A stretch of DNA of 64,000 nucleotides from Dehalococcoidia bacterium (lineage in GTDB: Bacteria > Chloroflexota > Dehalococcoidia > Dehalococcoidales > RBG-16-60-22): positions 1,891 to 65,890 of the forward strand of contig PLLL01000092.1 of NCBI GenBank assembly GCA_003141235.1. The letters are read 5' to 3'. The notes below the pieces were generated by a model. It ran no database searches and had not been told where the DNA came from. It worked only from the letters and a program-made list of their open reading frames with translations. Both the position numbers and the translations under genes were made by a program. Every line of letters starts with the position of its first letter. Position 1 is the stretch's first letter. Below, piece by piece: positions 9,870-11,167 of the stretch.

Positions 9870-10032
9870 GAGTTAGCAGGGTCAAAGGATTGCTAAGCCT
9901 ATAGCATTTTTGGTAGTGTATCAATTTGAAATTAATGAATGAAGATAATTAGTTGGGGTTTGCTCAACTTTACTTGGCAGAAGTGGGGAGGTAAATAGAT
10001 GATGACAAATATATTTTGGAATTGAATTGTTA

Positions 10033-10887
10033 TTAAGTAGTAACTGGTGGAACGATTGGTAAATTAAGGCTGACAATTTTGGCATCAATAACATGGCATA
10101 TATTTGGAGGAATAGATTTCCGATTTAAAAAATCTGATAATAATCGTTTTTCATCATAATAAGCAAAACAATCCGCACTACCTTTTAAATAAGCAGAAAG
10201 GTATTCTATTCTTGGAGGAACACCCTTCGCTAGTGAAAATTGATAAACATATTTAAGGTGGTCTTTAAGATATTTTACTGCGGGGATATAATCAGCATCG
10301 CCACTTATAAGAATAGCTACATCGTAATTATCCATTTTTGAAATCATATCTACTGCGATACCGATATCTACACCTTTTTCTCCTTGTTGGAGCCCTAAAT
10401 AACTTATTTTCCCATGTGAATCAACTTCAATTCTAAATACTCGATACGGATGGATGACATATTGACCAACATACTTAAATTCAAGGAAGCCTGTTTCCCG
10501 TTGAATGTCCTCGAAAGTTCGCTCTCTTAATTTTTGAAAGTAATTCCGTTCTTGTTCATGCCAGTTTTTTGCTAGTTGAGTCACTTGAGGTACTGTTAGA
10601 GCTATTTTACCTTTATATTCATCAACAATTTTTTGAGCAAGTTTAGGATTTTCAATCCAAGGAGAGATTGAAGCAGAGTAATACCAGTATACACGGATTA
10701 ATTGGTGTTGCCAATGAGTTATCTTGTCGAATTCTTCAAGAACACACTGAAAAAATTTCTTCCAAAGAAAATGTTGTTCTTCAAGACGATATTCGCCCTT
10801 TGCAGGGTCTGACACAAATGCGAAATGACGAAGATTATTGCGGAAATTTTCGCCGTCAATAAAGATTACTGTTTTTAATGATGCCAT
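10033..10887 (-). CDS. NYN/LabA-like domain protein (predicted RNase fold)
   Basis: VIFIDGENFRNNL... and GVDIGIAVDMISKMDNYDVAILISGDADYIPAVKYLK match the NYN (LabA-like) signature. AT-rich, with its own TTGACA promoter at 10995-11000. Confidence 0.75.
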   Translation of the reverse strand: MASLKTVIFIDGENFRNNLRHFAFVSDPAKGEYRLEEQHFLWKKFFQCVLEEFDKITHWQHQLIRVYWYYSASISPWIENPKLAQKIVDEYKGKIALTVPQVTQLAKNWHEQERNYFQKLRERTFEDIQRETGFLEFKYVGQYVIHPYRVFRIEVDSHGKISYLGLQQGEKGVDIGIAVDMISKMDNYDVAILISGDADYIPAVKYLKDHLKYVYQFSLAKGVPPRIEYLSAYLKGSADCFAYYDEKRLLSDFLNRKSIPPNICHVIDAKIVSLNLPIVPPVTT

Positions 10888-11010
10888 AAAATTTTATGGG
10901 GGTTCCACAGGAACCCCCAGTCTCCCATAATGGGAATACTTCCAATTGGCTAAATATCTTAGCCGGTTAGATAATATACGTTAAAAGTATCTTTTGTCAA
11001 TACCCCCTTA

Positions 11011-11115
11011 CTAAATTCCTATCCTTAACAAATCAATAATTTCTTCAAATGTCCAAATATGATTAGCTATTCCAGATGCCATAGCTGGTGTTCTAGGATA
11101 GGGGTTAGCTAGTGT
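11011..11115 (-). pseudogene. IS1-family transposase C-terminal fragment
   Basis: The minus-strand translation TLANPYPRTPAMASGIANHIWTFEEIIDLL aligns with the C-terminus of the intact transposase at 61905..62741 (TLANPYPRTPAMASGITNRIWSVEDIVKLAK). Nothing upstream of it is retained. Confidence 0.75.
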
Positions 11116-11167
11116 CCAACAATGTTTTTCCTTGACCTTTAAAGCTAAACTGTGCTAAATTATATAC

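Follow-up and report, generated by a model that had tools for sequence, protein, structure and literature searches.

A probable decayed transporter insertion sequence of the IS1 family with a NYN-domain passenger gene in a Dehalococcoidia bacterium

Insertion sequences (IS) that carry passenger genes are known as transporter IS (tIS) and have been described for IS1595 and IS66 (Siguier, Gagnevin and Chandler 2009), as the definitions quoted in PMC3129680, PMC9330008 and bioRxiv 10.1101/2021.05.26.445724 have it. Cassettes that lack a transposase altogether, the mobile insertion cassettes (MICs), are exemplified by MIC231 of Bacillus cereus (De Palmenaer et al. 2004, cited in PMC3129680). In the accessible text of PMC3129680, PMC9330008 and PMC7986276 both tIS and MICs appear as established categories, and the accessible parts of the reviews place passenger-carrying IS solely in IS1595 and IS66. 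Here we describe a locus at positions 9912-11115 of a 64,000-nucleotide stretch of contig PLLL01000092.1 from a Dehalococcoidia bacterium (assembly GCA_003141235.1; the whole stretch is called the window below), in which an AT-rich gene for a NYN-domain protein stands between an end of an IS and the last codons of an IS1-type transposase gene.

Members of the IS1 family have ends beginning with GGnnnTG and duplicate 8-9 bp of their target. Classical IS1, with a length of 768 bp, obtains its transposase through frameshifting between insA and insB and has no passengers. The stretch at 9912-11115 is, very probably in our judgement, the immobile remnant of a passenger-carrying IS from a branch of this family in which the transposase is encoded by a single open reading frame (ORF).

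The decayed copy and its relatives in the window

A first-pass annotation of the window had noticed that the motif at 9912-9930, GGTAGTGTATCAATTTGAA, matches the one at 58479-58497. The match of 18 out of 19 positions was confirmed, and the similarity was found to extend to 24 of 27 nt. When up to three mismatches were allowed, GGTAGTGTATCAATTTGAA occurred six times in the window, against 0.01 occurrences expected from shuffled sequence; these six family ends, at 9912, 58479, 59488 (minus strand), 61359, 63570 (minus strand) and 63578, all carry GGTAGTG. The one at 9912..9938 on the plus strand is the terminal inverted repeat of the decayed element, and corresponds to the right inverted repeat (IRR) in the ISfinder convention, being distal to the transposase start. 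It is followed by the AT-rich NYN/LabA-like gene that had been predicted there (10033..10887, minus strand, 284 aa, intact), whose product matches Pfam NYN (PF01936) with E=9e-13. Beyond the gene lies the IS1-family transposase remnant (11011..11115, minus strand), which had also been recognised and which consists of the last 34 codons and the stop codon of the transposase gene, reading TLANPYPRTPAMASGIANHIWTFEEIIDLLRIGI before the stop. The remnant shares 22 of 31 residues with the C-terminus of the intact transposase encoded at 61905-62741 (78% identity over 79 nt) and is at most 80% identical to the C-termini of other family members. Its homology breaks off sharply at 11115/11116; nothing is left of the upstream ~245 transposase codons, of the family's small conserved first gene or of the element's other end. 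The order and orientation of the end, the NYN gene and the transposase remnant match the intact element at 61359-63570, as the first-pass annotation had stated for the orientation of the remnant. The GC content across the NYN-bearing stretch is 0.33-0.38, compared with 0.55-0.58 in the flanks, and this strongly atypical composition argues for a foreign origin of the stretch.

The intact relative, element A (2212 bp, 61359..63570, minus strand), is bounded by 21-nt inverted repeats (61359-61379 and 63550-63570, 20/21 matching), and GAAAGCGG, which stands at 61351-61358 and again at 63571-63578, forms a perfect 8-bp target duplication around it. It encodes a 278-aa transposase of the IS1 family (61905..62741, minus strand). 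The position between the end and the transposase stop, which holds the NYN gene in the decayed copy, is taken up here by a different gene, as had been reported: 61438..61899 lies on the plus strand, convergent with the transposase gene and just before the end, and encodes a 153-aa protein with a C-terminal membrane helix. A homologue of this slot-2 passenger is present in the same slot, between transposase stop and end, of L034 (L numbers denote the loci compared in this work). On the other side of the transposase gene, the small conserved first gene (63298..63504, minus strand) encodes a 68-aa protein with a Lys/Gly-rich C-terminal motif and is a core component rather than a passenger. The upstream slot carries two small passenger ORFs, 62851-63126 (91 aa) and 63135-63350 (71 aa), both on the minus strand, for which no homologues were found in the 80 loci surveyed below. 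Pfam, NCBIfam, PADLOC and PHROGs gave nothing useful for these 68-, 71-, 91- and 153-aa products or for the 69- and 260-aa products of two further relics described below.

The transposase of element A has an N-terminal helix-turn-helix and a DDE core that match IS1 models, with 23.6 bits against Pfam DDE_Tnp_IS1 (cutoff 24.1) and 49.7 bits against NCBIfam transpos_IS1 (E=4e-13, threshold 100). It has more than 8000 homologues, many of them named IS1 family, including one at 73% identity named ISNisp5; many of those that are 72-85% identical carry PF03400 and the IS1 family name, and plasmid homologues are named IS1 family by the Prokaryotic Genome Annotation Pipeline (PGAP). The assignment to the IS1 family is based on the ends, the length of the duplication, the sub-threshold model matches and the names of the close homologues, and the transposase is, judged by its sequence, a distant member of an IS1 subgroup. 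In the contig search with this transposase the 278-aa ATG form gave matches, and the 294-aa TTG form none.

The end at 58479, with which the 9912 end had been compared, proved to bound an element of another kind: the motif match is real, and the element behind it is a transposase-less cassette and not a decayed autonomous copy. This element B (1010 bp, 58479..59488, plus strand; inverted end at 59470-59488) is flanked by a perfect 8-bp duplication, GTAAAAGC, at 58471-58478 and 59489-59496. Its single gene, 58604-59386, encodes a 260-aa lipoprotein-like protein without transposase similarity, in which 63-bp tandem repeats form a Pro-rich region; the number of repeats varies among the population contigs, giving gene calls of 259, 238 and 162+103 aa. 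An intact cognate transposase gene (61905-62741) is located 2.4 kb away, and element B has presumably been moved in trans. The presence of such an element in the same window, with a left end 18/19 identical to the 9912 end, would also suit a history in which the 9912 copy was never autonomous here, a non-autonomous end-NYN-end cassette having been mobilised in trans with the 34 codons already a dead fragment. NYN genes accompanied by an end and no transposase recur in other genomes as well. However, motif searches detected no second inverted end between 10888 and 11200 or nearby, and the transposase fragment extends exactly to the natural stop, in the same position and orientation as in L102, which makes this history very improbable. 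Such a fragment is what would be expected after a 5' deletion in an autonomous copy.

A solo family end (63578..63604, plus strand) represents a second decayed copy; it is followed by an ORF for a 69-aa membrane protein (63598-63807, minus strand), the whole region spanning 63578..63807. The target of element A overlaps the first base of this solo end, at 63578. In total, therefore, the window contains four relics of a single family: besides the decayed remnant at 9912 these are an intact element, a non-autonomous cassette without transposase and a second decayed copy, the solo end. The repeated occurrence of elements end-to-end, or within the first bases of a neighbour's end, suggests that the family prefers to insert at resident ends.

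Ends, slots and cargo across the family

Scanning species-representative genomes with the transposase gave 80 loci, from Chloroflexota, Proteobacteria, Acidobacteriota, Nitrospirota, Actinomycetota, Planctomycetota, Patescibacteria and archaea. In these loci the terminal sequence GGTAGTG(GG/TA/TC)TCA(G/A/T)TTTGA flanks the transposase gene in inverted orientation. Both ends were found in 63 loci, and 53 of these 63 pairs are bordered by perfect 8-bp duplications. The concern that the 9912 motif might be a common regulatory site unrelated to transposase genes, which the first-pass annotation had raised against itself, does not survive this result, because the 18-19-nt motif forms the terminal inverted repeats of elements with 8-bp duplications. 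More generally, the resemblance could be incidental: the NYN gene would then simply belong to the host, and the 19-nt motif would be a host sequence of regulatory or repetitive nature without connection to transposition; the gene is fixed in its population and has its own promoter and leader, as a resident gene might. We nevertheless give this view next to no credence, because the motif bounds transposase units with 8-bp duplications in dozens of genomes spanning phyla, a transposase C-terminus adjoins the NYN gene, the GC content is strongly atypical, and close relatives of the NYN gene occupy unrelated housekeeping contexts in different genomes.

The elements measure 1961-4532 bp (median 2983 bp). 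The distance from one end to the transposase start was 963-3285 bp in every element. The interval between the transposase stop and the other end did not exceed 80 bp in 33 of 70 loci; in 35 of the 70 it was longer than 150 bp, reaching 2650 bp. Tabulating this second interval, as had been recommended, showed that the extra DNA in those 35 loci holds mutually unrelated genes. For counting cargo we used the 55 elements flanked by 8-bp duplications, two of which are imperfect by one mismatch: cargo was present in 55/55, the upstream slot (slot 1) being occupied in every element and slot 2, 3' of the transposase gene, in 31/55. The idea of interchangeable passengers at a fixed position therefore holds, with two corrections: there are two cargo slots, and the arrangement, unusual for classical IS1, is not unprecedented among IS.

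The small first gene has a homologue in 65 of the 80 loci. For 36 of 43 elements the gap between the end and its start measures 63-104 bp. It usually lies on the strand of the transposase gene, and most of the 14 sequences displayed show a promoter-like TTGACA in front of it. One copy, on a Mesorhizobium loti plasmid, is annotated as 'histone H1'. The 68-aa protein carries the motif ...GRLGGLKGGKARA..LTP.QR.EIAKKAA..RW, which is also found at the N-terminus of P63C-domain cargo proteins. The gene is a core component of the family and not cargo, and its product may be an end-binding regulator.

Cargo is highly variable. The two slots contain 227 ORFs of at least 50 aa, which fall into 133 clusters, 114 of them singletons. 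Pfam domains in the 3' slot comprise NYN (3), dCTP-deaminase-like (2), KilA-N, Bro-N, MazF/PemK, HicB-like, staphylococcal-nuclease-like and DpnI-like proteins and an SDH protease; those in the 5' slot comprise HTH_3 with IrrE/M78 peptidase (13-15), P63C (6), SDH protease (4), Gp49, SocA/Panacea, HicB, STAND and AAA ATPases, a cytosine methylase and one NYN. A RES toxin with an Xre antitoxin occupies the 3' slot on a plasmid of the cultured Acidiphilium multivorum. From these domains the cargo looks like toxin-antitoxin or defence genes, a character that is only partly established.

The cargo moves with the element, as follows from identical multi-copy elements at different loci. Copies of 2890 bp that are 99.97-100% identical occur at three loci of one Bryobacterales genome (L064, L065, L066), and 3054-bp copies that are 99.9% identical occur at two loci of another genome (L081, L082); 8-bp duplications were present at L065, L066 (one mismatch) and L081, and none was found for L064 and L082. 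Among related elements the only shared parts are the end with the small gene, and the transposase gene with ~60 bp upstream of it, the slots being non-homologous. Cargo also differs at shared sites. Three species-level Dehalococcoidia genomes (L025, L026 and L032) have an element at one and the same 8-bp target upstream of mutL, in its promoter region between TTGACA and the mutL start (1308-1315/4353-4360, 4030-4037/6611-6618 and 2620-2627/6887-6894, respectively). One of the three is in opposite orientation, the flanks are 80-85% and the transposases 81-88% identical, and the three cargo sets are different. Likewise, two Nitrospira elements (L054, L055) share a site and have transposases that are 96.7% identical, and differ in their 3' cargo. 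Since the remaining 50 duplications show no target consensus, we favour the reading that these same-site elements are old residents whose cassettes have been exchanged in place, two cases being no proof of it; alternatively, the sites may possibly have been hit repeatedly. Extended to the whole IS1 branch, the reading would make it more than an IS with occasional passengers, namely a long-lived, vertically inherited gene platform with two slots. Its arms, the end with the small gene and the transposase gene, would be kept across speciation, and its self-contained defence- or toxin-antitoxin-like cassettes would be exchanged in place, the NYN gene with its previously undescribed three-hairpin, attenuator-like leader being one of them. 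We put this forward tentatively, as a possibility somewhat against the odds; were it true, the remnant in the window would be an end point, with the cassette domesticated and the vehicle discarded.

Three further arrangements of ends were seen among the loci. In L046 (567-573/3462-3465) the duplication, GTGGTAGT, lies inside the GGTAGTG of a neighbour. L077 contains a 129-bp pair of ends resembling a miniature inverted-repeat transposable element (3804-3932, within 3795-3941), and L076 a 33-bp back-to-back pair (3001-3033, within 3001-3073).

The NYN cassette and a proposed origin of the remnant

The NYN protein scores 49.4 bits against PF01936 (cutoff 24.2). Its AlphaFold model has a predicted local distance difference test (pLDDT) value of 87.6, and the sole significant match of the model in the PDB is 2qip (VPA0982, LabA-like; E=9e-7, template-modelling score 0.69 on the target). 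Among 58 homologues no variation was seen at D11, D174, D180, D189 and D199, and at least 90% of them retain D197. Conservation also extends to the acidic motifs DGxN, EKGVD and SGDAD. With dN/dS of 0.03-0.14 against relatives, the gene is under purifying selection and appears functional by every sequence test. Peat metagenomes, GCA_003141385.1 among them, are the source of this population, a Dehalococcoidia-like lineage; the protein was identical in sequence on 20/20 population contigs read, and the hrcA/metallo-β-lactamase (MBL) context was the same in 8/8 places shown. The gene is fixed in this population and retained by selection. PADLOC gave a weak match to the defence candidate HEC-09 (E=1e-8), and our best guess for the predicted role is an RNase that is kept under tight control and serves in defence or in the manner of a toxin.

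A metagenome scan with the NYN protein gave 5 short loci only, and its genomic context was established mainly from exact-protein look-ups. The complete elements L044, L050 and L091 each have a NYN gene in slot 2, between transposase stop and end, read from the same strand as the transposase gene. In L102 the order is transposase gene (product 68% identical), NYN gene (50% identical) and end, with the NYN gene again on the transposase strand. In a further group (L103, L106-108, L109-110) the NYN gene is followed 34-52 bp later by a family end, and housekeeping genes take the position of the transposase gene. Finally, the closest relatives (82%, 73% and 65%, in L104, L232 and L105, respectively) stand alone between unrelated housekeeping genes. 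Because NYN genes with an end and no transposase, and NYN genes on their own, both recur among the relatives, retention of the cassette with loss of its vehicle seems to be a repeated pattern, of which the window would show an intermediate stage.

We propose the following origin for the remnant. The layout of the family runs from one end through a promoter, the small 68-aa gene, cargo slot 1, the DDE transposase gene and cargo slot 2 to the other end; the transposase would recognise the ~18-24-bp ends (GGTAGTG..TCA.TTTGA) and move everything between them, making an 8-bp target duplication. In the ancestor of the copy at 9912, slot 2 would have held a self-contained NYN cassette consisting of a promoter, a three-hairpin leader and the coding sequence. 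This NYN-bearing copy would have inserted between the divergent hrcA operon and the gene for an MBL-fold hydrolase, and a later deletion would have taken away some 88% of the transposase gene together with slot 1, the small gene and the end next to it. The deletion probably ran outward from inside the transposase gene, sparing the promoters of both neighbours, and the residue would be what is now seen, one end, the NYN cassette and 34 transposase codons, no longer mobile. The surroundings are consistent with such a course. The hrcA-grpE-dnaK operon is preceded by a CIRCE-like operator (controlling inverted repeat of chaperone expression; 9808-9834, TTAGCACTC-N9-GACTGCTAA, 17/18 to consensus) and a TTGACA-17-TAAAAT promoter (9841-9869), both on the minus strand; this region is 43 bp from the IS end and appears untouched by the insertion. 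On the other side, a promoter-like site for the hydrolase gene lies at 11132-11161, just beyond 11116. The promoter regions of both neighbours are thus intact, just outside 9912 and 11116. A remnant of this kind explains the presence of an AT-rich gene between a heat-shock operon and a hydrolase gene.

Several observations weigh against this proposal. Neither an empty site nor a full-length allele or intact version of the window's NYN element was found, all population contigs being occupied, and the deletion is therefore inferred. The same holds for elements A and B, whose empty sites were not found either: all population contigs were occupied, and element B was not polymorphic. An 8-bp duplication near 11116 matching the 9912 side was searched for and none was found; with one end missing, the target duplication of the decayed copy cannot be checked. 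The right endpoint of the deletion is inseparable from a loss of host DNA. The closest NYN relatives, in L104, L232 and L105, have no recognisable end or transposase nearby, and their association with IS is for this reason drawn from more distant relatives. Moreover, the scores of the local transposase lie below both curated IS1 thresholds. Lastly, because cargo differs at orthologous insertions, the NYN gene could have entered a resident element by recombination. In that case an IS1-family copy would have inserted first, the NYN cassette would have replaced its slot-2 cargo in place through recombination with a second family member or with DNA from outside, and decay would have followed, as the different cargo at L025/L026/L032 and at L054/L055 allows. 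This order of events is compatible with the origin proposed above, the end state and the nature of the element being the same. Nevertheless, we consider it unlikely: NYN genes lie inside the complete, duplication-bounded elements L044, L050 and L091, and the identical multi-copy elements show that cargo normally moves with its element.

The NYN cassette brings its own upstream region. A promoter-like site, TTGACA-16-TATATT (10973..11000, minus strand, 11/12 match), begins 11 nt past the stop codon of the transposase remnant, and TTGACA is also found upstream of the leaders of NYN relatives. Three hairpins follow on the minus strand: P1, GGCUAA...UUAGCC (10948..10964), which covaries among relatives; P2, the nearly invariant UCCCAUUAUGGGA (10923..10935); and P3 (10897..10919), with a 10-bp GC-rich stem (10897-10906/10910-10919, loop ACA) that ends 9 nt before the ATG. 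The last of these had been flagged in the first-pass annotation as a perfect 9-bp hairpin in the 5' untranslated region; the hairpin is real, and its stem is one base longer than stated. The layout of the leader is kept in eight distinct relatives, with 91% of cells paired and two-sided changes in 10 of 20 pairs, and within P3 compensatory changes are seen in 6 of 9 pairs. None of 500 shuffles reached the observed percentage of paired cells, count of two-sided changes or covariation score, slid-register controls of the alignment collapsed, and the window's leader folds with z = -4.05. In the more distant NYN cassettes L102, L103, L044, L091 and L233 another hairpin is found at the position of P3.

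P3 is immediately followed by a U-run in most relatives, which gives it the look of an intrinsic terminator, and clear U-runs are present in L100, L106, L231, L232 and L233; the copy in the window fails the terminator scan, with a weak U-tract (tail AUAAAAUUUU). We read the leader as a putative cis-regulatory RNA. Its likeliest function would be that of an attenuator that keeps a potentially harmful RNase low, and UCCCA might pair alternatively with UGGGA or with the UGGGG of the third stem, as an anti-terminator would require. Another possible role is that P3 shortens the distance between the conserved GGGAG and the AUG to 9-12 nt. An Rfam search with the leader gave no match at E<=5, and a covariance model recovered only the eight known leaders in 843 kb of loci and no further copy in the window; a distribution beyond the NYN subclade could for that reason not be shown. 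At least 120 viral-contig matches to the invariant leader 14-mer, TCCCATTATGGGAG, were considered as leader copies and rejected as chance matches, because none had an NYN gene or a neighbouring hairpin. In L109 (4734-5000) the NYN cassette abuts a 66-aa transaldolase fragment; there the promoter is lost, and the three leader stems and the downstream IS end are kept.

Other unusual regions of the window were noted in passing. At 4810-5858 (minus strand) an AT-rich islet (GC 0.34-0.42) contains a gene for a 203-aa SocA/Panacea-domain protein and, after it, an ORF of 144 aa. The two resemble a toxin-antitoxin pair of the PanA type, and no family ends are nearby. The most AT-rich islet of the window (15280-16814, minus strand, GC 0.29-0.31), also without family ends, contains two ORFs, one of 205 and one of 253 aa; its neighbours are a selenophosphate-synthetase-like (AIRS) gene on one side and an ORF of 134 aa on the other. 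A long gene region at 38244-40900 with ~375-bp tandem-like repeats, in which a 38-nt core occurs seven times at 363-384 bp spacing, encodes a repetitive domain protein unrelated to the IS remnant.

Comparison with known systems

With the IS1 family the elements described here share the GGnnnTG ends, in the form GGTAGTG, and an 8-bp duplication. In contrast to classical IS1, their transposase is encoded by one ORF of 278 aa, the elements are 2-4.5 kb long, and the position of insA is taken by the 68-aa Lys/Gly-rich protein, which has no detectable similarity to InsA and no Cys motif. The ISMhu11 subgroup of IS1 in ISfinder spans 0.9-4.6 kb, which would imply that such long IS1 members are already known to curators. 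Literature searches for ISMhu11, ISNisp and IS1-family passengers or cargo returned nothing on this IS1 clade.

Like MIC231 of B. cereus, element B has IS-type ends and a duplication around an unrelated gene and lacks a transposase; its ends, however, belong to a different IS family, and its mobilisation in trans would be the work of a transposase encoded elsewhere. The NYN protein has the same fold and acidic motifs as the NYN/LabA-like proteins (PF01936) and 2qip, and differs from them in a largely helical insertion of ~110 residues and a C-terminal extension; its gene is without a partner gene. The leader shares with terminator-type attenuators and riboswitch expression platforms a promoter, a series of structured stems and, shortly before the start codon, a GC-rich hairpin; it has no Rfam match and the U-tract of the window copy (AUAAAAUUUU) is weak. 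Covariation supports it as a candidate cis-regulatory RNA of compact size that Rfam does not contain.

The locus at 9912-11115 is very probably a decayed tIS of the IS1 family, and passenger-carrying IS as such were already known. What reaches beyond the textbook, and is only partly established, is the clade-wide two-slot architecture with its small gene, the toxin-antitoxin- or defence-like character of the cargo and its possible turnover in place, and the covarying leader. Because standard annotation labels the transposase alone, the cargo of such elements and its mobility go unseen, in an abundant IS1 lineage that extends from Chloroflexota to Proteobacteria and archaea and routinely ferries toxin-antitoxin, nuclease, protease and regulator cassettes. 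With the tIS of IS1595 and IS66 this lineage has in common a single transposase, short inverted repeats, a target duplication and unrelated genes that move along; it differs from them in that the transposase is of the IS1 family, cargo is the rule (55/55), there are two defined slots, and a small first gene is conserved.

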